Assembly (NCBI GenBank): GCA_000175855.1 | Contig: ACYB01000031.1 | Span: 150,001 to 182,000, forward strand | Source of the DNA: Raphidiopsis brookii D9 | Lineage (GTDB): Bacteria > Cyanobacteriota > Cyanobacteriia > Cyanobacteriales > Nostocaceae | Direction of reading: 5' to 3' | DNA: 32,000 nt | In this document: positions 8,619-27,316 of the stretch, in pieces | How the letters are laid out: each line of letters starts with the position of its first letter | How positions within the stretch are numbered: position 1 is the first letter of the stretch | Made by a program: the position numbers and the translations under genes | Notes under the pieces: model-generated | What the model was told of the DNA's origin: nothing | The model's input: the letters and a program-made list of their open reading frames with translations, nothing else | The model's database searches: none

Positions 8619-10043
8619 TTAGATCTGTCTGTTTGTATGATTATTAAATTTTCTGTACAAGTCATACCAGTAATAAGTCCCTAACCATAACACTGATAAC
8701 AATCCCGCTAAACTGAGAGTTAAACCAGTAAAGGGAACTAAAAATGCAAATATGGGTAAGACTGCTCCAGCAATGGTACAAATAATTGCTGCTAATCCTA
8801 ACTGACGATTTCCACCTAATCCGTAAATTAAACTTAGTAACAACAGTGAAATTATTAACCAGGCGAATTCTCCACTCATAAACCTTGAGGTATATGTTAA
8901 AGTTAATAAGCTGGTAAAAAACACTCCCCCGGCGATCGCCAGATTTTGTAAGCTCATGGGTACGGTTAAGTATAGTAATAATATCCACCACAAAAATAAT
9001 CCTGGTGCCAATAGTAATAGGCGAGGTATAATTCCGGTTTTACCTATGGGTTTAGTAGCCGTAAAGACACCGAAAGGATTTTTGACAGAAACATTATCAT
9101 CAAAAATCCAAGTGAATTGACTATTACCTCCATCTCTTTTAATTTCCTGGGGAACTATACCACTGGCAAAATCAGCATTGGGAAATCTAGCAGTAGCTGT
9201 GAGACGGAAACCAGAGAGTAACTGATTAGTGGCATTGTATACCCAACGTGGTCCTCCTTGTGCTTGATAACTAACTTTGATGGTAGCTTGCTCTCTAGGA
9301 GCTAAATCCAAGGGAAATCCATAATCTTCTGGACTAGTCTGTTCTAGTCTTGTCCCTTCTCTCTCCACTTTATATCCAGACAGAAGAGAATAGCCGTATG
9401 GTGGTGGTGCTTCAAATATAAACCGATTTTTATTATTTAGGGTATTGACTATTTTGTACTCACTAGTATAGTCAGTAAGATAAATCGCACTACGATTTTG
9501 CACATCTACACTTTGATCAATAGTCACTTGAATTTGGGAACCAGCCAAATTTAAATACCGGGTGACTTTTTGTTTGTCCGTCACTTTAACAATTCTATCC
9601 CTGACTCGAGTGGTGTAGCTATAGGGTTCCTCAGTTATATAACTAATACGAGGTGCATTGTGTTCCAATTTATCACCAGCAACAGATTCAGTTACCTTAG
9701 CCACCTTTGCTTGCTCCCAGTGGTGGTAACGATTACTCAGGGTAGAGGTTAGGAAAAATCCCGTCACTGATAGAATTAACACCAATGCAAAGTGTGGTAT
9801 GCCACGCAAAATTTGGGAATAACGAACTGACCAATCTCGCAAAAAATCCGTCTGCATTTCCGTTTCACGTCTTAGGGAAAAACTGATTAAGGCGATCGCC
9901 ACTCCCAAACCAATAATTAAAAACACCACTAATAGTGAATTTTCAACTACTTGCGTACCGAACCTGATTAATTCATCAGGATGTGTAAGGTCGGGTAAAC
10001 TGGGAATACCCTGAGCAGAAGAAGATATAGCTGAAGTTTCCAT
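8619..10043 (-). CDS. polytopic membrane protein of unknown function (topology reminiscent of CreD)
   Basis: 474 aa. Two N-terminal TM helices are followed by a soluble domain of about 240 aa and a C-terminal block of 4-5 TM helices. Its start lies 12 nt after the stop of the upstream gene, which suggests an operon. Confidence 0.6.
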   Translation of the reverse strand: METSAISSSAQGIPSLPDLTHPDELIRFGTQVVENSLLVVFLIIGLGVAIALISFSLRRETEMQTDFLRDWSVRYSQILRGIPHFALVLILSVTGFFLTSTLSNRYHHWEQAKVAKVTESVAGDKLEHNAPRISYITEEPYSYTTRVRDRIVKVTDKQKVTRYLNLAGSQIQVTIDQSVDVQNRSAIYLTDYTSEYKIVNTLNNKNRFIFEAPPPYGYSLLSGYKVEREGTRLEQTSPEDYGFPLDLAPREQATIKVSYQAQGGPRWVYNATNQLLSGFRLTATARFPNADFASGIVPQEIKRDGGNSQFTWIFDDNVSVKNPFGVFTATKPIGKTGIIPRLLLLAPGLFLWWILLLYLTVPMSLQNLAIAGGVFFTSLLTLTYTSRFMSGEFAWLIISLLLLSLIYGLGGNRQLGLAAIICTIAGAVLPIFAFLVPFTGLTLSLAGLLSVLWLGTYYWYDLYRKFNNHTNRQI

Positions 10044-16935: not shown

Positions 16936-16989
16936 TACCCACCTGGTAAATTAATAATGACTGGAGGATGTTATCCCCCAGTCATATAG

Positions 16990-17375
16990 TGGATCCGAGC
17001 AGAGTCGAACTGCTGTCCAAATTGGGTATTGACCCCCCGCTCACTCACAGGTTTAGCTTTTCTTACCCTCAAAGCTGGGATCGTTCATTGTCCCGAACCT
17101 AGGATGCTCTGATTAAGTCTTTTCTAACAAGCCAACCAGAGAACACTTGTTAGAGCATCCGTTGGGGTTAGGTCTCTAGTCCTTAACGGAGTCAAACCAG
17201 AGACGCTCGGACCTATAAGAGGTTATTAGGCAGCAACTAGGGCTTCCTTACGAGCAAATTTTACGATATTGTTCGCATTTACGTTGTTTTGAGCCTTTGA
17301 TTTGCGAGAGGAGACTCACTCTCGACCTGAATCACAGAGCAGCTTTCGCCAACCTGTCGAAACCGTGACGGACCC
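16990..17375 (-). ncRNA. ssrA: tmRNA (one-piece SsrA)
   Basis: On the minus strand, 5' GGGUCCG pairs with 3' CGGAUCC, including the G3:U wobble that is the alanine identity element. The T-arm is GUUCGACUCUGCUCGGAUCCA. The tag reading frame is GCG AAC AAT ATC GTA AAA TTT GCT CGT AAG GAA GCC CTA GTT GCT GCC TAA TAA (17276..17223), giving ANNIVKFARKEALVAA. The terminal CCA is not encoded; the genome reads CTA. Confidence 0.93.
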
Positions 17376-17625
17376 ATGCTTTTTATCCTTACATTTATAA
17401 TATATCACAAGATTTACTAAATGTCCAGGTCCAGCACAAAAAATTTTTTTCGCCTCCTGGGAAGACCTAGGAGTTAGGAAGAGAACTAATTAACCACAAT
17501 ATGTCTTACCAGGATACTCATAACCGCTACATTGCGTAACCAATCACATGCAAATTCGGTTAAAACTGACTGGTAAACAGGCGATCGCACAGTGAGTGGG
17601 AAAGATTTCTGAAACTTAAATTTTT

Positions 17626-20600
17626 TTATTTAGAAGAGAGAATCAAACTCAAAACATTTAATTCTTGGGAGTTCAGCAGGTATTTCTCTGTAAACAACTT
17701 ATCTCGCATTTCGTCTAAGCTATAACTGTTGAATACGATAAAGGGAAATTCTTCATAAATGTGTCCTATGGGTAAAATATTAGTTACAGGATATAAAGAG
17801 CGAATGTAAATAGATAATATATCTTTAAATCGCATATCCTCCGGTTCTTGAGGGTGAGTTTCAAAGTATTGTTTCATCACATCACCACTAATAAACGCAA
17901 ATAGAGGAAGAGCATAGTACTGATCTGCTTGTAGACTTTCCTGATATTGATCATACTTTTGACTTTTTTTAGGTGCATTAATTAGTTTTTCCACCAATTC
18001 CATACCATCTTTTACCGCTGAGGTGAGATTTTCTGGATAACTGGGATTGGAACTAATATTTTTCAGCTTGTTTAAGAGTTCTGGGTTAGCATATTTTTGG
18101 ATTTCTAACAACGGTATGGAATAGGACTGTCGAATTTGGGAACAGGGAACAATCAATAATCCACCACTAATATAAGCCAATTCTAAGGGAATAAAATCCA
18201 ATAGCTGGTCTAATGTTTTAGAAGAATCGGCAAATTTGCTGTTAAAGCTTTCCCGAATTTTTAAATAACTCTCTTGGTGACTCTTGCTAGTAGTGAATTT
18301 AGCTCTACTCATTAATGATTCTATTTTCATATAGGCATCTTGTAAGCAAGTATGACTTTTGTTATAACTATATTCTCTTTTAAGTTGGGTAATTAGATTT
18401 TCGATTTTACTAGCAAAGGAATCTCCCGCTGCAAAGACTGACTTTCCACCAATGGGAATCAGAATATAATTTTTCTTCCCCAGAGAGCCATAACCTTGAA
18501 TTCTGGTCATGATGGATGCTTTGAGAATTAGTAGCAGATTTAATAAACTGAGGCAATTTTCTCTCACCGATATGTCCATTTGATCACCATAGTAAACCGA
18601 ACGTTCTGCTAAATAGAAATTGATATACTTATCTTGATTGTCAATATCATCTTCTCCCCTCCCTCGGTAAATTACCTGAATTATTTCCATGAGATTTTTT
18701 TCAATTTCAAATTTAGGAATCTCTACCAATATATGCTTGGCTTTAGGAAAAGATAATCCCCGACTTCCAGAAGCGGTCATAAATATAACTTTTACTGTTT
18801 TTTGATATTTTTTAACTTCTTCTTTTTCCGCTGCTGATATATTGGCATGTATGGCTAAAAAATGCTGATTTTGTCTAAAATTTTCCCTACCTAGCTCCTG
18901 CTGAATTTTATCAATCAATTCTGATAATTTGGATTTATTTTGGATATAAACTATAAATTGTTCAACATTGTCTTTTGTTAACAATTCTCGGATATCTTTA
19001 AATAGCTCTTCTTGACATTTTTTTTCTAATTCGGATTTGTTTTTTAACTTGGATTGATTATTGAACCGACATGATTCGACAATAATTTGATACTTGATCG
19101 TTAAGCTTTTGGCTGGATAGGTATTTGTATTAATCAAAATAGCACTCTTACTAGCAAATTCAAAAGATTCTACACTAAGAGGTTGAATGTGAGATTCTGC
19201 TCGTCTAAAGTAAATCTTGTTTGGTTGGGGAGAACCATCTTTTAAATGTTGAGATATCACATTTTTATCAACTATAGAAGCATCAGCTACAATAATTTTA
19301 GTGTTAAAACCGTTGTTTTGGTCGCTTAATTGATACTTGTTGACAATTTTTTTGATCCCTTGTAAAAATTCTGCACCTCCTTCATCTCCTGTAATTTCAT
19401 CTATCATAATAAATAGATGTTTAATCCGACTAGATATATTACGCATTCTTTCTGTTAGGACTTTATCTTCTTTGGAGTTGTATGCATCACTAAAGATTTT
19501 TTCTAGGTGTTTTAAGGTATCCCCAAGCTGTGTTTTTCTGAGAGATTGAATAGAAGAGGTAGCAATAATTTGATTATGTTTTTGATCAGCAATTAGATGA
19601 TGTAGTCCTTGACAAATACTATTTAATACTCCCTTATTTTTTGTCCCCATATCCTTAAAAGTATCATCAGTTATTTGTGCCAATCTATTTTTTCTATGGG
19701 ATATTCTGTCCATGTTGTTGCTGTTAAGAAACCGTACATTTCCTAAGGTGAAATCTTCTTCGTGATCATTTGATGTATAAGCAACTGATAGTTCACCAAA
19801 ATTATCTTGAATCAAATTGCTATCGCTGTTAATAGCGAATATTCTATCATCTACAAGTTTACCATCTTTCCGATTCTTAAATTTTTCAATAATATCCAAA
19901 TTAACTTGTTTGCGAGGACTAACATAGAAAAATAAAAAACCTTCATCTTTATGTTCAATAATAAAATCAACGATGGCTGTGGTTTTGCCAATCCCGGGAT
20001 TGCCAGTGAGAAATAGGTAGGTGTTGTCTGAAGCAAGATATCTTTGAATTAATTGATTATGTGCTTGTCTAAAATTAGGTCTTCCCGTTAAATCTAAACT
20101 AGATATCAATTCTGATGGTACGGGAGCAACGGTGTTATAAAATCCTGAAATCGTTTCTATATGAGGTGGTAAAATATTGATGGTGTCTGGGCTAATACCC
20201 ATAATTGAATCAACCATTTTTCTCCCTTGAGCAAAATTTCTTTGGGCGTTAATGCGTATGTTAAGAAAAACTCTTTCACGCACTTCCATAATTTCTTCCC
20301 GTCTATTATGTTCTCGATAAATTTGATAACAGGGTTCCAATAGTTCTAAATTTTCTCCAGGAATACATATAGTGTTCACAGAGCGATCGCTATATCCTAC
20401 AGCATTACAGACTAATCTTTTTCTGTCAGGAATTATCCCTTTTTCGACCAGGTTGCTCTTTTGTAAAAATTGCCAAAAACTATAAATGTAACTACCTGCT
20501 TGAATTGATTTAGCGCTTTCTTTGTCCTGATATTTAAAAGCAGTGAAAAATTCTTTTAAGTCTGAATCAAAGTCTAAACTTAGGGTTTCGGTATCAATCA

Positions 20601-21255
20601 GCAATTTAGAAAATACACTTTTTGAACGTAAGTAGTTGACCTCTTGCAACAATAAGTTCCTAATAATTTCTACATAGTCTATATTTTTTAGATCATCATC
20701 TGTATGAATTGAAAATACTGATAAGTCAAGACATAAAAGGCGATAGTTATTTTTATATCTTAATAACATCAACGTATCAGCATTAAGAAACTCTCCTTTC
20801 TCTTTGTATTTATTAAAATCTTGCTCCCCTATATTTAAGTTTGGCAGCTGAGAGAGCAGGTTTGTAAACCAGTGGGTTTCACTAACTTCATGAGTACCAA
20901 GACTGTTATCATTGTTAAACCGACATTGATAATAGATAATTTCTAAATTATTTAAACTTGATTGATGGTCACATCCCCAAGACTTGAGATATTCCCTAAA
21001 TAAATTTAGTCCAGATAAAAAACCTTTTTGCAAAAAAAAGTCGCACCATGTTTTTGCTATTTCTTGGTCTATATCACTGATTAGTTTGTTAACAATTAAC
21101 TGTTTTATCTTGGAAGGTCTCAGATTTTTTAGTTCTTGACTGTACAAATCGCCAAATCTGTTTTGAATCTGATTTTGATGAATGTAATTAAGTATTCCTA
21201 CATTAAAACCAACCTCAAACAGTCTTCCTAAATCATCAGCTATTTTACCGTTCAT
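17626..21255 (-). CDS. large P-loop NTPase / SF2-helicase-like protein (1209 aa); family not recognised
   Basis: Walker A is LTGNPGIGKTT (aa 416-426, with the GNPGIGKT core at nt 20004..19981). Walker B/motif II is LFIMIDEITGDEG (D619 E620, nt 19401..19396). There is an ADAS motif III-like element. IHANISAAEKEEV and TASGSRGLSFP (aa 827-837) resemble motifs IV and V. QVIYRGRGED (aa 860-869) resembles motif VI. About 400 aa at the N-terminus and about 330 aa at the C-terminus are unassigned. Codon usage is AT-rich. Confidence 0.8.
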   Translation of the reverse strand: MNGKIADDLGRLFEVGFNVGILNYIHQNQIQNRFGDLYSQELKNLRPSKIKQLIVNKLISDIDQEIAKTWCDFFLQKGFLSGLNLFREYLKSWGCDHQSSLNNLEIIYYQCRFNNDNSLGTHEVSETHWFTNLLSQLPNLNIGEQDFNKYKEKGEFLNADTLMLLRYKNNYRLLCLDLSVFSIHTDDDLKNIDYVEIIRNLLLQEVNYLRSKSVFSKLLIDTETLSLDFDSDLKEFFTAFKYQDKESAKSIQAGSYIYSFWQFLQKSNLVEKGIIPDRKRLVCNAVGYSDRSVNTICIPGENLELLEPCYQIYREHNRREEIMEVRERVFLNIRINAQRNFAQGRKMVDSIMGISPDTINILPPHIETISGFYNTVAPVPSELISSLDLTGRPNFRQAHNQLIQRYLASDNTYLFLTGNPGIGKTTAIVDFIIEHKDEGFLFFYVSPRKQVNLDIIEKFKNRKDGKLVDDRIFAINSDSNLIQDNFGELSVAYTSNDHEEDFTLGNVRFLNSNNMDRISHRKNRLAQITDDTFKDMGTKNKGVLNSICQGLHHLIADQKHNQIIATSSIQSLRKTQLGDTLKHLEKIFSDAYNSKEDKVLTERMRNISSRIKHLFIMIDEITGDEGGAEFLQGIKKIVNKYQLSDQNNGFNTKIIVADASIVDKNVISQHLKDGSPQPNKIYFRRAESHIQPLSVESFEFASKSAILINTNTYPAKSLTIKYQIIVESCRFNNQSKLKNKSELEKKCQEELFKDIRELLTKDNVEQFIVYIQNKSKLSELIDKIQQELGRENFRQNQHFLAIHANISAAEKEEVKKYQKTVKVIFMTASGSRGLSFPKAKHILVEIPKFEIEKNLMEIIQVIYRGRGEDDIDNQDKYINFYLAERSVYYGDQMDISVRENCLSLLNLLLILKASIMTRIQGYGSLGKKNYILIPIGGKSVFAAGDSFASKIENLITQLKREYSYNKSHTCLQDAYMKIESLMSRAKFTTSKSHQESYLKIRESFNSKFADSSKTLDQLLDFIPLELAYISGGLLIVPCSQIRQSYSIPLLEIQKYANPELLNKLKNISSNPSYPENLTSAVKDGMELVEKLINAPKKSQKYDQYQESLQADQYYALPLFAFISGDVMKQYFETHPQEPEDMRFKDILSIYIRSLYPVTNILPIGHIYEEFPFIVFNSYSLDEMRDKLFTEKYLLNSQELNVLSLILSSK

Positions 21256-21483
21256 TTGTTCTATCCTTTTATATGATTTTTATTCATTTTGAAAACAAGT
21301 TCTAAATTTCTTTCATTAGTTTGTTAGGTTGTTAGGTTTTTGAGTAGTTCTTCTGACTGATAATTGATTTAATATAAGTTAAGAATGCTAAAGAATTAAA
21401 ATCTGCCTTCTCTCGAATATGTTTCAAAATTGCACACTGAGTTACAGATTCGTCTCCAATTAAATTTTCATAAGGGTCTAATT

Positions 21484-24360
21484 TTAGTTGGGAATTTCCG
21501 ATTTTTTATACCGATAAAAATGAAATAATGCCAAGCATTGTAAAATTTCATCTTTTAATTGACTGTTATTATATATTAATCCTTTTCTGATATCTTCATC
21601 ATCTAAAATTCCATCATAAATATTTAACAGTGTCGCATAAGACATGACACCATGATAGTTAATACTCTGATCAAGGCTGAACCCGTTAAATAAGTTGAAG
21701 AAAATCACAGCTTGTTTATTCTTATCCTCCGCTAAGTTAGTAAGTTCTAGGGTATCTTGAATATATAGGGATGTAAGTTTGAAATTTTCTAGCTTTACCG
21801 CATAGTATTTATCAAAAAACATGGGATAAATTTTGATATTATCTCTTTCTTTTTTTAGGGATTTGATTACATTTTTAGACATAAAGAATAATTCCTCATT
21901 TTTCTCTTTTTGGGTGATATGTAAGGTACTGCTGTAGGGAACTTTAGATATATAAATAAAGTGCTTGTATCCCTTGCTGTAAAGAGTATCCACATTGTCT
22001 ACTATAACAGCGGGATATTCAAACATTTTTTGATGATCTTCATAGTTTTCTGAAAAGGTTTTTAATAGTTGAAACCTGACTGTTTCTTCTTTTACTTCTA
22101 GGACGATAATTTCACCCACTAGGTTAGACGATTTGTATTTCACACTAGAATTCCACACACTATCGGTTTCACGACTAGAAACGATGATAATAGCGAGTTT
22201 ATCAATTTCTTGAAATGTAAATTTCCCGGTTTCCTTAAATTGAAATTTTTTGGGAAGTACGGAATATAGAGAGGTCAAAACATTTGGAATTTTAAAGTTT
22301 ATCTTGGAGGTTTGGGATTTGTTAATCACTATCCCTTGTTGGTTACTACGATATCCATCATTCAGTAAATGAGATATAACTTTAGTTAAACAAACTATAA
22401 AGTTTTCTATGGGTGCATTATCTGTTTTTTCTTTTTGGTGTATTCTTAATAGAGGAACAAATGGTTTTGTCCTATCCGTCAATTGCTTCTCTAAAATGAC
22501 ATAGAGACAAATATAGGTAAGTAGGCTATAGGTGATTTTGTAAATAAATTCTTGATTGGTTTCTAATTGGTCCGTTTCGGAACGATGTGGAAATATTAAC
22601 AATTTACGAGACTTTAAATGCTGATCATAGAATTTTTGCCCTTCTTTCATTGATAAAAATAGCACCGGTAATACTTTAATACCTGGAACCAGATCATATT
22701 TCATATCAAATGTTTGCTGATCTTCTGTTTTTAAAAAATGTATTTCGCTAATACTGATATTTGCTGGTAAAGTAATTAATGACTTGCCTTGGGTTGTGGC
22801 TTCCCCTAGGTTAATATACTGCAAGCATTCCTTTGGTTTTTGTAGGACTTCTTTGAAGAAGGTGGTTCTTTTAGTAATGGTATCAAGGTCATTTTCTAAA
22901 ATACTTTCTTTCACAGAAATATGTAGAGGGTAATGTCTAACTGGGTATGGAGTTTTACGTTTAATTATATTTTTTATCAGTTCTTTTGTCTTGTGGATTT
23001 TTTCCTTTATCTTTAATTCCTTAAACCTCCTAATATAATTTTCAAATAGTCGCTTTTTGGCTTGATCATCATTTCCTTTTAGTATAGGCAATATTTCCTT
23101 TTCTAAAAGTTCAATGGGATTATAATCTAAATCACTTTCTATACTTTCATTGGATGCAAATATAAAACAGTACAAAAATACAGTTTTCAAGACTTTTGTG
23201 GGTAAGGGCGATTTTTTTGATGATTTGGCAATTGCAGTTTTATGCTCTTCCCCATCTGGATTTAAAAGATCTAGGTGATAATCAAAAGAACTATTTTTTT
23301 GGTGAGCTTGCACTTTACCATCCAATTTCATTTTGATTCCAAAGGTAAATTCTATTGCATCTTTCTGGGGACTCTCTACTTCTCCTAAATAGCCTTCTAT
23401 AAGAGGAATGATCGGCAATATATCGTACGCTTCACTACGAGAAAATAGTGCTTGGTAATTAACTGTTACTCCTGCATAGCTAACTTGATAGTCTCCATCT
23501 GCTTTACTGGTGTCGTTAATATAATCTTCTAATAGTTTTAGTCTTCTAATCAGATCCTGTAAATATAGCTTACCTTCTCCTTCATCAACTTGCTCTAACA
23601 GAAATTCCAAATATTTAATTTTAGCGAATTTCTTCAACTTTCCTAAGGTTTCTTGATTTAGAAGATTTTGCAATTTGTAGATGTCTGAATTATGGCTTTT
23701 TTCTAAACTGGAAATTACATAGTCTAAATCTTTTTTATCCTCCTGATCCAAGTCAGCAAATTTTATATTAATATAATTATTGATTCCCTTGACAAGGGTA
23801 GTCGTAAAATCACAGGGCTTATCCACGTGAATTTTGATCTTGTGAGCTTTCAGTAGTTGTTTATTTTTGCTATTGTCATTTTGTCTGACTGTCAGTCTTT
23901 GTTTTTTTAGATTTGTTTCTTCTGCAAATGGATAGGTCAAATCTAATAATTTGTCTTTAGTTTTATAATCTTGCCTATAATTTCCTTTAAATTCATTAAT
24001 ATCTGATGTTAAACTTCTGATAAATTCAACTCTGTCATGGTACTGGCTATTTTTTTGTATGGCTAGGGTCAATTTATCTTGTATCTCAATGGTAATTTTC
24101 TCAATTTGCTTCCTAAATAAGTCTTGAGTATTAGGACTAAAATTTAAAGTAGCTCCACGCGCTGACCGATCACTTACTAATGGATTAGATGGATTCAATT
24201 TCATCACTTCAGTCGCTACTTCTTCTACGTTTATCCTCATCCTACGACCATCCTGTGAAATACTAAATACTGGCTTTTGTGTTAAAATTTCCAGGATTTT
24301 ATTCAGCAGGTCAGAGTAATCTAGGTATGCCAAATCTGAATTAACAACTATTTTATTCAT
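21484..24360 (-). CDS. large protein of unknown function (958 aa); first gene of the AT-rich cassette
   Basis: It is a 2.9-kb uninterrupted ORF in DNA of roughly 28-30% GC, where stop codons are frequent by chance. It is co-directional with the helicase-like gene and upstream of it. I found no recognisable catalytic motif apart from a weak D733...E755-x-K757 pattern. Confidence 0.8.
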   Translation of the reverse strand: MNKIVVNSDLAYLDYSDLLNKILEILTQKPVFSISQDGRRMRINVEEVATEVMKLNPSNPLVSDRSARGATLNFSPNTQDLFRKQIEKITIEIQDKLTLAIQKNSQYHDRVEFIRSLTSDINEFKGNYRQDYKTKDKLLDLTYPFAEETNLKKQRLTVRQNDNSKNKQLLKAHKIKIHVDKPCDFTTTLVKGINNYINIKFADLDQEDKKDLDYVISSLEKSHNSDIYKLQNLLNQETLGKLKKFAKIKYLEFLLEQVDEGEGKLYLQDLIRRLKLLEDYINDTSKADGDYQVSYAGVTVNYQALFSRSEAYDILPIIPLIEGYLGEVESPQKDAIEFTFGIKMKLDGKVQAHQKNSSFDYHLDLLNPDGEEHKTAIAKSSKKSPLPTKVLKTVFLYCFIFASNESIESDLDYNPIELLEKEILPILKGNDDQAKKRLFENYIRRFKELKIKEKIHKTKELIKNIIKRKTPYPVRHYPLHISVKESILENDLDTITKRTTFFKEVLQKPKECLQYINLGEATTQGKSLITLPANISISEIHFLKTEDQQTFDMKYDLVPGIKVLPVLFLSMKEGQKFYDQHLKSRKLLIFPHRSETDQLETNQEFIYKITYSLLTYICLYVILEKQLTDRTKPFVPLLRIHQKEKTDNAPIENFIVCLTKVISHLLNDGYRSNQQGIVINKSQTSKINFKIPNVLTSLYSVLPKKFQFKETGKFTFQEIDKLAIIIVSSRETDSVWNSSVKYKSSNLVGEIIVLEVKEETVRFQLLKTFSENYEDHQKMFEYPAVIVDNVDTLYSKGYKHFIYISKVPYSSTLHITQKEKNEELFFMSKNVIKSLKKERDNIKIYPMFFDKYYAVKLENFKLTSLYIQDTLELTNLAEDKNKQAVIFFNLFNGFSLDQSINYHGVMSYATLLNIYDGILDDEDIRKGLIYNNSQLKDEILQCLALFHFYRYKKSEIPN

Positions 24361-24367
24361 TCTCTGT

Positions 24368-24391
24368 CTATGGTGTTTACTATGGTGTTTA
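24368..24391. repeat. perfect 2 x 12-bp tandem direct repeat (CTATGGTGTTTA)2 abutting the start of the 958-aa gene
   Basis: Read directly: ctatggtgttta ctatggtgttta at 24368-24379 and 24380-24391. The minus-strand ATG of the 958-aa ORF is at 24360-24358. Confidence 0.9.
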
Positions 24392-24699
24392 TATTTTCCT
24401 ACTTTAGTTAATCCTAGTATACATCACTATATCCACTGGTTCAAAGCAGGTTAGAAAACTAGGCGATCGCCTGAGAATGATAAGAAAAAATTATATTTAT
24501 GGGAGGGTAAGATAAGTTTTTTTGTGGTAAAGGTGGTAGAAATGTGGTACTATGAAGGTTGAGTATAATGGAGTGTGAGCAGTTTTAAAAAAATCGCTCA
24601 TATTCCCATTGTCAGGGTATCATGCCCAAGGGTCAATAGTCAACCCCCATTGGGAAAAAAAATTGGCGCGCGAGTATATACACCATTAATTGCGATCGC

Positions 24700-25383
24700 T
24701 CAAAAGAGAATGCTACGTGTTAGGTTTTCTCCTATCAAACCTTGGAACAATCGCAAACCATCCGTACCCCCTAGGGATTGATCCGCTGCTCTTTCTGGAT
24801 GTGGCATCATCCCCAACACATTACCCCCTCGATTGCAAATACCCGCAATATTATTTAGGGAACCATTAGGATTCTCTCCATCATATCTAAACAATACCTG
24901 TTGATTATCTTCAATCGCCGCTAAAGTGTCTTTGTCCGCATAAAATCTCCCCTCCCCATGGGCAATTGGTAGGGTGATCACTTCTTTATCCCCATATCCA
25001 CTGGTCCAAGGTAGGTTGTTACGCTCGACCTTCACAGAAATGCGATCGCAAATAAAATGTAGGTTCTGATTTCTGGTTAACGCACCAGGTAGTAACTTAG
25101 CTTCAGTTAATACCTGAAAACCATTACAAATACCGATGACAAATTTACCTTTTTCAGCATGGTTTACCACTTCCTGCATGACCGGAGAAAACCGGGCGAT
25201 CGCCCCACAACGTAAATAATCGCCGTAACTAAACCCACCGGGAATAATAATTACATCTATATCGCTGATATCTCGCTCCTGATGCCAAACCATACGGGTG
25301 GTATGTCCCAGTATATCTCTGGTAACGTATGCTGCATCGCGATCGCAATTAGACCCTGGAAAAACTAAAACACCAAATTTCAT
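24700..25383 (-). CDS. purQ: phosphoribosylformylglycinamidine synthase, glutaminase subunit
   Basis: MKFGVLVFPGSNCDRD, GICNGFQVL (catalytic Cys), MMPHPER (His/Glu). 227 aa. Confidence 0.93.
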   Translation of the reverse strand: MKFGVLVFPGSNCDRDAAYVTRDILGHTTRMVWHQERDISDIDVIIIPGGFSYGDYLRCGAIARFSPVMQEVVNHAEKGKFVIGICNGFQVLTEAKLLPGALTRNQNLHFICDRISVKVERNNLPWTSGYGDKEVITLPIAHGEGRFYADKDTLAAIEDNQQVLFRYDGENPNGSLNNIAGICNRGGNVLGMMPHPERAADQSLGGTDGLRLFQGLIGENLTRSILF

Positions 25384-25426
25384 ACCAACCTTTATGAAAA
25401 CTCAAGTATACCAAGGAAGTGATCTC

Positions 25427-27316
25427 CTATTCCACCGTCACGGATTTAGCCAAATTCCTCGGTTGGTCTACATCTAAACCCCTGCGAGCTGCAATGTGAT
25501 AGGCTAATAATTGCAGGGGAATGACCGTCAAAATCGGTGATAAGATCTCCTCCACATTAGCAACAGGTATTAAATCATTAAATATTTCTGCTGCTTCTCC
25601 ATTATTGACAGAAGTTATCCCTATGAGTCGGGAATCCCTTGCTTTTGCTTCTTGCGCATTGGAAATCACCTTTTCATATACACTACCACCCATGGCGATC
25701 GCCACTACAGGAACTTTAGCATCCAATAGGGCAATTGGCCCATGTTTCATTTCTCCTGCGGGATATCCTTCAGCATGGATATAGCTAATCTCTTTTAACT
25801 TTAAAGCTCCTTCCAAAGCAATAGGAAAATTAATACCCCGCCCTAGAAAAAATAAAATCCCGGGTTTCCGAAAAATCATGCACCAGTTGTTCAATATATT
25901 TTCCTGGGTTTCTAAAATGGTTTCAATTTCTATAGGTAATTGACGTAAACCGGTAATAATATCCTGTATCCTTTGTAAACCAATAGTCTGACAACGATAA
26001 GCCAAATCCAAGGCCAAACCATAAAAAGCCATTAACTGGGCAATAAACGTCTTAGTTGCTGCTACACCAATTTCAATCCCTCCATGGGTATTAATCAAAC
26101 TACTGACCATTTGTCCCAAGCTGCTTTCTGGACGGTTGGTAATCCCCAATAGTCGAGCTTCATATCCCCCTGATTTACCCAGTCTCCGTTCCTTTTCCAT
26201 CGCTAAAGCTGCTAGGGTATCAGCAGTTTCTCCCGATTGAGTAACACCAATGGTTAGGGTATTAGCCATCAATGGTGATGGTGCATACCGAAATTCTGAA
26301 GCATATTGTACTTGAGTGGGAATTTCTGCCAACTGCTCTATTAAGTATTTCCCAACCAATGCTGCATGCCAACTTGTTCCACAAGCGACTATTTGAATTT
26401 GTGCCAGATCCGTATACAATTCTTCTGGCAGTCCTAAGTTTACTGGTGTATGGGAGTGATTGGGAAAATAGGACTCTAAGCAAGTTCTGACTACCCCCGG
26501 TTGCTCATATATTTCTTTGAGCATAAAATGCTTGAAACCCTGTTTTTCCACCATGATTGGATTCCAATCCAGGGTACGAGGATGTTTCTTTAATCTATTT
26601 CCAGCAAAATTATAAACCTCAACCCCCAAAGGAGTTAACCGGGCAATTTCCCCATTCTCTAGGGTCAATACCGCACGAGTATAGGGAACTATTGCTGGGG
26701 TGTCGGAAGCACAGAAAAACTCCCCTTGTCCAAAACCTATAACTAAGGGCGCCTGTTGACGAATCACAATCAACTCATCGGGAAAATCCGCACAAATAGC
26801 CGCGATCGCAAAAGCTCCCTCTAATTTACCCACTGCTGCTAACACTGCATCTAAAAATGCTGAATTGGATTTATGATTAGAGTTATTAGGAGATAAAACA
26901 TGCTTTAAACACTCTGCAAACAGATGGGGAATTACCTCCGTGTCCGTATCTGAACGAAATTTATGACCTAAGGTCTTTAAATATTCTCGCAGTTCACGGT
27001 AGTTTTCTATAATACCATTTTGTACTACGGCAATGCGTAGAGCAGTATCTTGATGAGGGTGGGCATTATATTCTTCGGGTTTACCATGGGTTGCCCAGCG
27101 GGTATGACCTATACCTAATTGAGCTGGGTTTTCTATTTGTTCTAGCTTGGAGCGTAAATTTACTAATTTACCCTTGGCTCGCACGCAACTAATATTACCT
27201 TCCCCAACTGTGGCAATTCCAGCTGAATCATAGCCTCTATACTCTAATTTTTCCAGTCCAGATAGTAAAATTTCCGTTGCTGTTTGAGTACCTATATAAC
27301 CTACGATTCCACACAT
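25427..27316 (-). CDS. glmS: glutamine--fructose-6-phosphate aminotransferase (contains a locally out-of-frame segment, see findings)
   Basis: MCGIVGYIG (N-terminal nucleophile Cys), two SIS domains (GTSWHAA, GVTQSGETADT), and C-terminal LKLKEISYIHAEGYPAGEMKHGP...AKSVTVE. Confidence 0.95.
   Translation of the reverse strand: MCGIVGYIGTQTATEILLSGLEKLEYRGYDSAGIATVGEGNISCVRAKGKLVNLRSKLEQIENPAQLGIGHTRWATHGKPEEYNAHPHQDTALRIAVVQNGIIENYRELREYLKTLGHKFRSDTDTEVIPHLFAECLKHVLSPNNSNHKSNSAFLDAVLAAVGKLEGAFAIAAICADFPDELIVIRQQAPLVIGFGQGEFFCASDTPAIVPYTRAVLTLENGEIARLTPLGVEVYNFAGNRLKKHPRTLDWNPIMVEKQGFKHFMLKEIYEQPGVVRTCLESYFPNHSHTPVNLGLPEELYTDLAQIQIVACGTSWHAALVGKYLIEQLAEIPTQVQYASEFRYAPSPLMANTLTIGVTQSGETADTLAALAMEKERRLGKSGGYEARLLGITNRPESSLGQMVSSLINTHGGIEIGVAATKTFIAQLMAFYGLALDLAYRCQTIGLQRIQDIITGLRQLPIEIETILETQENILNNWCMIFRKPGILFFLGRGINFPIALEGALKLKEISYIHAEGYPAGEMKHGPIALLDAKVPVVAIAMGGSVYEKVISNAQEAKARDSRLIGITSVNNGEAAEIFNDLIPVANVEEILSPILTVIPLQLLAYHIAARRGLDVDQPRNLAKSVTVE

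Follow-up and report, generated by a model that had tools for sequence, protein, structure and literature searches.

The question raised by a 32,000-nucleotide (nt) stretch of the genome of the cyanobacterium Raphidiopsis brookii D9 (contig ACYB01000031.1, positions 150,001 to 182,000; hereafter, the window) is what two very long genes, here denoted A and B, do between the transfer-messenger RNA (tmRNA) gene ssrA and purQ. A scan of the window for open reading frames (ORFs) shows that these two co-directional minus-strand ORFs occupy the block between the 5′ end of the tmRNA gene and the purQ stop codon, with no other ORF of note, exactly at the positions and with the sizes and boundaries given in a preliminary description of this DNA, which took the pair for a candidate undescribed defense-type system on a foreign cassette. 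The predicted fold of A, together with a conserved MID-like QG...N pocket, indicates that A is probably a very divergent Argonaute-like protein; B is a large helicase-family NTPase of superfamily 2 (SF2). Our leading interpretation, to which we give about an even chance, is that A and B form an undescribed machine, consisting of an Argonaute-like sensor and a helicase, that acts against plasmids or other invaders and is related in its logic to the DdmDE and ApsAB systems.

The AlphaFold2 model was obtained for an intact ortholog of A (mean predicted local distance difference test score, pLDDT, 75; predicted TM-score, pTM, 0.71) and searched against the PDB with Foldseek. About 40 of the top 50 matches are Argonaute or PIWI proteins, the best one being Aa-Ago (E 1.7e-4, probability 0.96), and further matches include 1yvu (probability 0.99), TtdAgo, MILI/HILI, hAGO1/2, and the short prokaryotic Argonautes (pAgos) of SPARTA, SPARDA and SPARSA. 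Med13 (7kpv_D), which Burroughs et al. assigned to the PIWI superfamily (PMC3702460), is also among the matches. In the model, A contains a MID-PIWI structural core for which Argonautes are the best structural neighbors, and the predicted order of secondary-structure elements in the PIWI-like region is beta-beta-beta-alpha-beta. The characterization of A as a protein without domains thus holds at the level of sequence families, with no match in Pfam, NCBIfam, PADLOC or PHROGs, but not at the level of the predicted fold, which is nearest to Argonaute/PIWI.

Conservation among 37 divergent members of the A family (down to about 20% identity) points to the same regions. In the MID-like region, the Q and G are present in all 37 sequences, the N in 35, and the S and Y in 36 each, within a segment that in the window protein reads K660-x3-H664-x10-Q675G676-x13-K690. 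When A was compared, using hhalign, with a pAgo profile (built around TtAgo from pTT27, for which a homology search returned only 15 close Thermaceae relatives, and to which five plasmid-borne Piwi proteins were added), the best and sole aligned segment, itself non-significant, placed the SQG...N..SLY of A on S432-Q433...N449 of TtAgo, a motif whose Q433 is part of the 5′-phosphate pocket of the MID domain. In the PIWI-like region, D733 is D in 35 of the 37 members, E750 is E or D in 31, D869 is D or E in 33, and H947 is invariant, so that, judging by conservation, these residues may represent a candidate D-E-D-H constellation; going by canonical strand order, a Lys (K806) stands where the second catalytic Asp would be expected.

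Gene B encodes two RecA-like domains with SF2 motifs I, Ia, II, III, V and VI, and GNPGIGKTT, SPRKQVNLD, DEIT, ADAS, TASGSRG and QVIYRGRG are invariant in the alignment; the Walker A and Walker B residues lie where they had been placed before. The Pfam Helicase_C model matches B with 32.3 bits (cut-off 23.5), ATPase_2 and AAA_22 also exceed their cut-offs, and the Foldseek matches in the PDB (E about 1e-8) include UvrB, Brr2, MrfA, Mfd and DEAD-box proteins. Searches of NCBIfam, PHROGs and PDB sequences yielded no system-level match for B, with library matches limited to the P-loop and Helicase_C. The N-terminal domain contains the conserved motifs GRLFEVGFN, FLQKGF, NADTL...C-DLSVF, SKSVFS and NAVGYSDR and is retained in a homolog from Acinetobacter; the C-terminal domain is a candidate interface with A. 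Only two Cys residues of B are invariant, both upstream of Walker A. A reading of the N-terminal domain as a PD-(D/E)xK nuclease (E88, D159, D176, K211; P0157 numbering) was rejected, the Lys not being conserved in the Acinetobacter homolog and no profile matching, and so was an affiliation with YprA/DUF1998 proteins (ARMADA and related), given that B has neither DUF1998 nor such partners.

A pattern scan of the GTDB species representatives found the genes in about 87 species, which is a lower bound, and 80 loci were kept, all of those with a named organism being cyanobacterial. B lies directly downstream of A in the same orientation at 68 of the 80 loci, the exceptions being mostly contig ends or insertions, and the A gene comes first at all loci examined. 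The identities of A and B covary closely (r=0.95, 66 loci), in Microcoleus and on plasmid C of Trichormus the last 4 nt of one gene are shared with the other, and a 6.7-kb ENA metagenome contig encodes a 2028-aa natural fusion (P0279), with A as residues 1-989 and B from residue 1021; the richness of this protein in Ala, Arg and Gly suggests a high-GC host. Purifying selection on both genes is evident from the ratios of nonsynonymous to synonymous substitution rates (dN/dS) against Cylindrospermopsis raciborskii, 0.22 for A and 0.18 for B, that is, 2-5 times those of neighboring housekeeping genes, and conservation extends along the full length of both proteins. The two genes, as had been proposed, are therefore a genuine, co-inherited two-gene module.

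Full-length homologs of both proteins are found across filamentous cyanobacteria. Their identity follows phylogeny, falling from 92-96% in Cylindrospermopsis to about 65% in the Anabaena/Dolichospermum group, then to about 50% in Tolypothrix, Calothrix and Scytonema and to about 45% in Microcoleus and Moorena. At 23 loci spanning Nostocales, purQ is immediately upstream of A, and in Microcoleus, the pair is in stable synteny of its own (pheT ... znuABC). Microcoleaceae and relatives (L034, L036, L037, L053) carry tandem A-B-A'-B' arrays, in which one copy shares about 45% and the other about 40% identity with window A.

Several loci depart from this plain arrangement. About 9 kb is inserted between A and B, both full length, in Calothrix NIES-4071/4105 (L009 13007-22021), the inserted genes encoding two-component regulators, an SsdA-like toxin with Imm5, and Gp49/helix-turn-helix (HTH) toxin-antitoxin proteins. 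In Moorena JHB (L008 13572-14123), an IS200-type Y1 transposase gene separates A and B, again both full length. In an uncultured cyanobacterium (L084 11053-12645), B retains only residues 1-311 and 969-1208, an internal deletion of the helicase core that marks a decaying copy.

Beyond the chromosomal loci, the pair is present, close to integrases and transposases, on six cyanobacterial plasmids, all of them conjugative. Five of these, from Nostocales, carry a second lineage (about 45% identity), and the sixth, Nostoc pNPM2, carries a third (about 28%). Plasmid-borne pairs in the same A-to-B order were detected outside the cyanobacteria as well, in Acinetobacter sp. PK01 (hhalign probability 98.8% for A, E 1.4e-16, and 100% for B, E 5.6e-47) and on a Cupriavidus megaplasmid (E 8.7e-53 for A and 1.7e-76 for B), and an A homolog is found in the Firmicute Gottfriedia. 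The family is small: among 1.84 billion representatives, clustering at 50% identity leaves only 343 clusters that belong to it. The Nostocales module is thus an old chromosomal resident beside purQ, with sister lineages on conjugative plasmids.

Two of the plasmid neighborhoods contain other large genes. On Trichormus variabilis plasmid C (L091 15689-18175), the pair is followed by a gene for an 828-aa Sacsin (SACS)-domain protein and then by that for a very large hypothetical protein. Directly downstream of the Acinetobacter pair (L094 10049-15205) are genes for a 1718-aa DUF4011/AAA_11/AAA_12 helicase with a C-terminal REase_MTES_1575 domain and for the toxin HigB, a neighborhood that may represent either a defense-island context or an additional component.

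Neither protein can be placed in a named system. PADLOC-DB v2.0.0 has no match for A, and B matches only mad8 (E 0.005) and Csf4 (E 0.014), both over the P-loop region; apart from the P-loop and Helicase_C models, Pfam, NCBIfam, PHROGs and PDB sequences gave no match either, in agreement with the earlier impression, and the openly searchable literature yielded no account of the family. The Hachiman, Druantia and Gabija systems had been cited as examples of such a layout, but the Argonaute/PIWI-like fold of A points instead to DdmDE, ApsAB and pPIWI-RE as the closest known kinds.

DdmE is about 700 aa long; A, at about 1000 aa, is longer. DdmDE also consists of two genes, one for a catalytically inactive Argonaute-like protein that is missed by sequence searches and was predicted by structural modeling, and the other for an SF2 helicase of about 1200 aa. 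This Vibrio cholerae system eliminates plasmids by guide-directed recognition followed by helicase loading (bioRxiv 10.1101/2024.05.10.593530). The architecture of the helicase differs, however: DdmD begins with the helicase (Walker A K55) and ends in a PD-(D/E)xK nuclease, whereas in B a 385-aa domain precedes the core that carries K424 and no nuclease matches. The DdmE and DdmD structures are absent from the top 50 fold matches of A and B, which is only a weak negative.

ApsAB is an antiplasmid system of Escherichia coli ST38 (PMC11096173). Its Argonaute-like protein, the experimentally validated ApsB, is defined by the motif Y-x3-K...QG...K and, without any sequence similarity to pAgos, shares with them no more than a 'loose structural similarity'. 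It resembles A-B in combining an Argonaute-like protein with a large SF2 helicase, and A has K-x3-H...QG...K where ApsB has Y-x3-K...QG...K. ApsA, by contrast, is 1569 aa long with a C-terminal PD-(D/E)xK domain, compared with 1209 aa and no nuclease detected in B, and the order of the genes is reversed, the helicase gene being first in ApsAB and the Argonaute-like gene first in A-B. We took ApsA and ApsB from E. coli CP061233.1 and stitched ApsA, which is split by frameshifts in that record. With sensitivity limited by the single-sequence template, B (profile A2) showed no relationship to the stitched ApsA, with an hhalign probability of 0.1% and no hmmsearch match. Membership of A-B in ApsAB was rejected on the lack of homology, the reversed gene order and the lack of a nuclease, the resemblance of SPRKQVNLD to SPQKSQIDLD of ApsA being purely local. 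The ApsAB homolog tables (Supplementary Data 7 and 8, PMC11096173) include neither Anabaena nor WP_011316675, and the cyanobacterial ApsAB-like systems of that study differ from the A-B proteins. In CP061233.1 (E. coli STEC639; L093 2299-7005), apsA is split into three unannotated ORFs and apsB is intact; the record, a 1-Mb 'plasmid', may well be a noisy long-read assembly or a piece of chromosome assigned to a plasmid by mistake.

The pPIWI-RE systems are predicted to perform guide-dependent restriction, show a patchy distribution suggestive of horizontal gene transfer, and comprise three genes in the order restriction endonuclease (REase), DinG helicase, PIWI (PMC3702460). A-B resembles them in the pairing of an SF2 helicase with a protein that, in pPIWI-RE, carries a divergent prokaryotic PIWI module and an N-terminal region of other origin, but it has two genes, the PIWI-like one first, no REase, and a helicase without the DinG-type Cys cluster. 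We rejected membership given this difference in the operon and the lack of any pPIWI_RE match (DUF3893/DUF3962 and related) in 36 members of the A family. Long pAgos such as TtAgo and the long-B/short systems (BPAN, SPARTA, SPARDA) provide the best structural matches of A, the Q...N motif of A aligns, non-significantly, with the TtAgo MID motif, and an Argonaute sensor is coupled to an associated effector, as proposed for A-B. A differs from pAgos in the absence of a Piwi or PAZ signal in Pfam and in being about 300 aa longer, and its partner is a helicase, unlike the nuclease, TIR or SIR2 effectors of pAgos; classical pAgo membership was rejected as well, with no Piwi match and a non-significant hhalign comparison even after the profile was broadened to 12 sequences. 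The best reading of these comparisons is that A-B resembles the systems that combine an Argonaute-like sensor with a helicase, without being a demonstrable member of DdmDE or ApsAB.

By analogy with these systems, A would bind the 5′ end of a short nucleic-acid guide in its MID-like pocket and would recognize complementary DNA or RNA of invading replicons. Target-bound A would recruit or activate B, which, as an ATP-driven SF2 helicase, would unwind the target or translocate on it, and the target might then be cut or cleared by the PIWI-like center of A, by a hidden nuclease domain of B, or by host nucleases. Such a logic has been demonstrated for DdmDE (bioRxiv 10.1101/2024.05.10.593530), has genetic support for ApsAB (PMC11096173), and was proposed for pPIWI-RE (PMC3702460). 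We favor a role against plasmids or other invaders because of the plasmid-borne and cross-phylum copies, the tandem duplications, the insertions of insertion sequences (IS) and cargo genes, the deletion in one B copy, and the constraint that is relaxed relative to the neighboring genes. The sparse cross-phylum distribution and a possible frameshift in window A are further signs of a conflict system. The idea of an undescribed defense-type system is partly supported, by the module itself, a layout reminiscent of defense systems, the lack of database matches and the plasmid copies beside integrases; its original basis in a foreign cassette is not.

Table 1 Features of the locus (window coordinates; residue numbers are those of the window proteins)
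Feature	Position	Strand	Comment
tmRNA (ssrA)	16989..17375	(-)	Boundary only, outside the module
Gene B	17626..21255	(-)	1209-aa ORF; large SF2 helicase-family NTPase
B C-terminal domain, aa 901-1209	17626..18555	(-)	Sequence-conserved, pLDDT <50, no detectable relatives
B helicase core, aa about 386-900	18556..20100	(-)	Complete SF2 motif set
B motif VI, QVIYRGRG	18655-18678	(-)	Core motif
B motif V, MTASGSRGLSFP	18745-18780	(-)	Core motif
B motif III, VADASIV	19270-19290	(-)	Core motif
B Walker B, MIDEITGDEGG	19375-19407	(-)	Core motif; D619/E620
B motif Ia, SPRKQVNLD	19894-19920	(-)	Core motif
B Walker A, GNPGIGKTT	19978-20004	(-)	Core motif; K424
B N-terminal domain, aa 1-385	20101..21255	(-)	Strongly conserved, no detectable relatives
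3′ tail of A, out of frame	21332..21499	(-)	Conserved (GNSQLKLDPYENLIGD...KNYSKT, stop); 55 codons + stop
Gene A as read in the window	21484..24360	(-)	958-aa ORF; predicted Argonaute-like; shortened by frameshift
Poly-A run	21502..21507	(-)	A6 in the window, A7 in two relatives (DNA alignment with L102 and L003; frame translations)
PIWI-like region of A, aa 716-953	21502..22215	(-)	Conserved D733 (22162-22164), E750, D869 (21754-21756), H947 (21520-21522)
MID-like region of A, aa 582-711	22228..22617	(-)	Well modeled; family-invariant Q675-G676 (22333-22338), N693, S697, Y699
N-terminal half of A, aa 1-562	22675..24360	(-)	Mixed alpha/beta domains, no family match; invariant K345 and P316
purQ–A intergenic region	24361..24699	(-)	Probable promoter region; HIP1 sites 24463 and 24692
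purQ	24700..25383	(-)	Boundary only; GATase_5; linkage to A kept across Nostocales

Two sets of observations, one on the context of the genes and the other on the fold of A, weigh against the invader-directed machine. As to context, the chromosomal copies are not embedded in defense islands: the 137 neighboring ORFs belong mostly to housekeeping families, match only generic kinase and ABC-type models in PADLOC, and show no enrichment of integrases or transposases. The long-conserved synteny among housekeeping genes is, along with this neighborhood, unusual for defense systems and fits a cellular role. Furthermore, the pair has no relatives in IMG/VR, for which reason a viral origin was rejected, and no PHROGs match, and the scans of family libraries for a nuclease domain in B found none.

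Given the synteny across the order and the housekeeping neighborhood, the principal rival is that A-B is a domesticated genome-maintenance machine of filamentous, polyploid cyanobacteria, rather than an immune system, that would deal with replication or termination intermediates, R-loops, or problems of chromosome and plasmid copies. TtAgo, for instance, has been reported to take part in the completion of chromosome replication. Compatible with this role are also the purQ-A-B linkage across Nostocales with identities that follow phylogeny, synonymous divergence (dS) equal to that of the flanks, the stable Microcoleus synteny, and the purifying selection along both full genes. We nevertheless consider it unlikely: a maintenance function sits poorly with the sparse distribution (no picocyanobacterium such as Synechococcus or Prochlorococcus is named among the 80 loci), with paralogs on conjugative plasmids next to integrases and on plasmids in unrelated phyla, with tandem duplications, with copies disrupted by IS elements, internal deletion or frameshift, and with dN/dS values well above those of the neighboring housekeeping genes.

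A possibility that is compatible with order-wide retention, and that we put forward tentatively as somewhat improbable, is that A founds an unrecognized, deeply divergent Argonaute/PIWI branch with an obligate helicase partner, vertically retained, in contrast to the known pAgo systems, at one chromosomal locus during the entire radiation of Nostocales. Such a branch, if real, would be an innate immune module of unusual stability or else a domesticated apparatus for guide-directed management of genome or plasmid copies in polyploid filamentous cyanobacteria, and its retention beside purQ raises the question of when a 'defense' module turns into core machinery. Should the invader-directed machine be confirmed, A-B would be a third or fourth independent lineage of cryptic systems that pair an Argonaute-like protein with a helicase, after DdmDE, ApsAB and pPIWI-RE, and the first one characteristic of filamentous cyanobacteria, bloom-formers included (the genera concerned are Cylindrospermopsis/Raphidiopsis, Dolichospermum, Nodularia, Microcoleus and Trichodesmium). 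The system could then help to account for the obstacles met in keeping plasmids in these bacteria and in manipulating them genetically, and A might provide a new programmable nucleic-acid-binding scaffold.

The second set of observations bears on the rival under which A is not Argonaute-like at all, but rather a large partner of the helicase with a new fold, such as an adaptor, sensor or scaffold, the Foldseek matches then reflecting generic Rossmann-like or RNase-H-like sub-folds in a medium-confidence model. The fold matches are indeed loose, with TM-scores of 0.14-0.34 and root-mean-square deviations of 8-25 Å, several segments of the PIWI region are modeled at pLDDT <50, and the candidate catalytic and pocket residues come from conservation and profile alignment, not from 3D coordinates. 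At the sequence level, the Pfam Piwi (PF02171) and pPIWI_RE models match none of 36 divergent A members at E<=1, searches of PDB sequences with single sequences and with profiles A1, A2 and A3 returned nothing meaningful, and hhalign gave non-significant results against both the 12-sequence pAgo profile (probability 0.3%, E 0.23) and, with profile A3, ApsB (probability 0.07%, the single-sequence template limiting sensitivity). This lack of any significant link to a PIWI family and the Lys at position 806 speak for the new-fold rival. Against it, the top 40 matches are almost exclusively Argonaute or PIWI proteins and the alignments span 370-760 columns, which speaks for several domains matching together and against a generic sub-fold, and of all placements, the best profile-profile segment falls on the MID motif. 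We therefore regard an A of unrelated fold as quite unlikely and retain the Argonaute-like assignment as probable.

The base composition of the block, from which its foreign origin had been deduced, deserves separate consideration. The sharp contrast in guanine-plus-cytosine (GC) content was borne out: it is 0.29-0.35 in 1-kb windows within 17.5-24.5 kb and 0.38-0.46 in the flanks and, by gene, 0.315 in A and 0.325 in B compared with 0.414 in the rest of the window. The HIP1 motif (GCGATCGC) occurs 19 times in the window, with a single site (20383) within the two ORFs, as noted before; three more (17581, 24463 and 24692) lie at the intergenic edges of the stated interval, 17376-24699. Scaling the density of the flanks by base composition yields 1.3 expected sites in the block, compared with the one observed, so that the scarcity of HIP1 adds no independent signal.

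The low GC is shared by the pair in every host, with values below those of the surroundings in all 68 species-level loci with enough flanking sequence (mean deficit 6.2 points), for example, 0.29/0.31 against 0.41 in Anabaena PCC 7108 and 0.39 against 0.46 in Microcoleus. Within the window, the deficit affects all codon positions (GC1 0.41 in the pair versus about 0.45-0.59 in other genes, GC2 0.25-0.29 versus 0.33-0.44, GC3 0.27-0.28 versus 0.31-0.41). The amino acids F, Y, M, I, N and K (FYMINK) make up 36-38% of A and B, compared with 19-29% in 15 of the 16 other tabulated genes, the remaining one, an unannotated ORF, reaching 34%, and both proteins are poor in G, A, R and P (GARP). The low GC hence comes mainly from the FYMINK-rich amino acid usage of A and B, and the compositional break is a trait of the gene pair rather than of the window locus; relatives retain the pair at this locus, yet with GC below that of the flanks and not host-like.

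The dS values against the orthologous C. raciborskii locus are 0.15 for A and 0.16 for B, in the range of purQ, argZ and metK (0.15-0.23), which implies that the pair has resided at the locus as long as its neighbors. Exact-match look-ups of the window PurQ and ArgZ, aimed at strains without the cassette, returned no records. The break in GC and HIP1 is thus real, yet provides no evidence of recent acquisition, and cautions that a gene pair may owe such a break to its own nature and to selection on it. Insertion of a recently acquired foreign cassette or defense island between ssrA and purQ, for which GC (0.32 versus 0.41), HIP1 (1 versus 18 sites) and the adjoining tmRNA gene might speak, is already contradicted by the same locus and gene order in C. 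raciborskii, the Nostocales-wide purQ linkage, the dS values, the amino acid-driven low GC of orthologous loci with HIP1 as expected from composition, and the position of the pair 5′ of ssrA without integrase or repeats, and is highly improbable.

The 3′ end of ssrA is the usual integration site of ssrA-targeting islands. The pair lies on the 5′ side of the gene, no integrase or repeats are present at the locus, as had been stated, and the ssrA adjacency is lineage-specific, being absent in Anabaena PCC 7108, Microcoleus and others; an ssrA-targeted island was rejected on these grounds.

Window ORF A is shorter than its orthologs (1001-1009 aa) because the poly-A run is A6 and not A7, a 1-nt deletion that ends the gene early. 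The tail beyond it, with a stop codon at 21332-21334, has a dN/dS of 0.25 against C. raciborskii, like the rest of gene A, and the repaired gene would span 21332..24360 and encode about 1009 aa. The deletion may stem from a sequencing error in the homopolymer, or the gene may have been inactivated (pseudogenized) very recently, possibly in a tract prone to slippage; window A is 92% identical to the ortholog P0002.

Among the 137 neighboring ORFs, 8 are genes of the Uma2 family (putative PD-(D/E)xK REases). In Microcoleus (L006 8880-9452) and Calothrix (L009 8970-9542), whose contexts are otherwise different, such a gene adjoins A on its upstream side and is encoded by the opposite strand. This placement recalls the REase of pPIWI-RE systems; Uma2 genes are very abundant in cyanobacteria, so the adjacency to A may be due to chance.

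Promoter matches in the intergenic region between purQ and A are of the consensus type only and do not exceed those in shuffled sequences. The farther flanks of the window contain housekeeping genes (glmS, fpg, leuCD, argZ, metK) along with genes for a pentapeptide protein and an HSP70-like protein; a 474-aa ORF in the flank (8619-10043, minus strand) has no Pfam match at E<=1e-5. In the window (24700-27316), glmS precedes purQ and no purS ORF was seen, whereas the two loci compared with it (L003, L102), those of C. raciborskii CP091284 and of the nearest metagenomic relative, have the order FUR-purS-purQ-A, which points to a local rearrangement upstream of purQ in the window genome.

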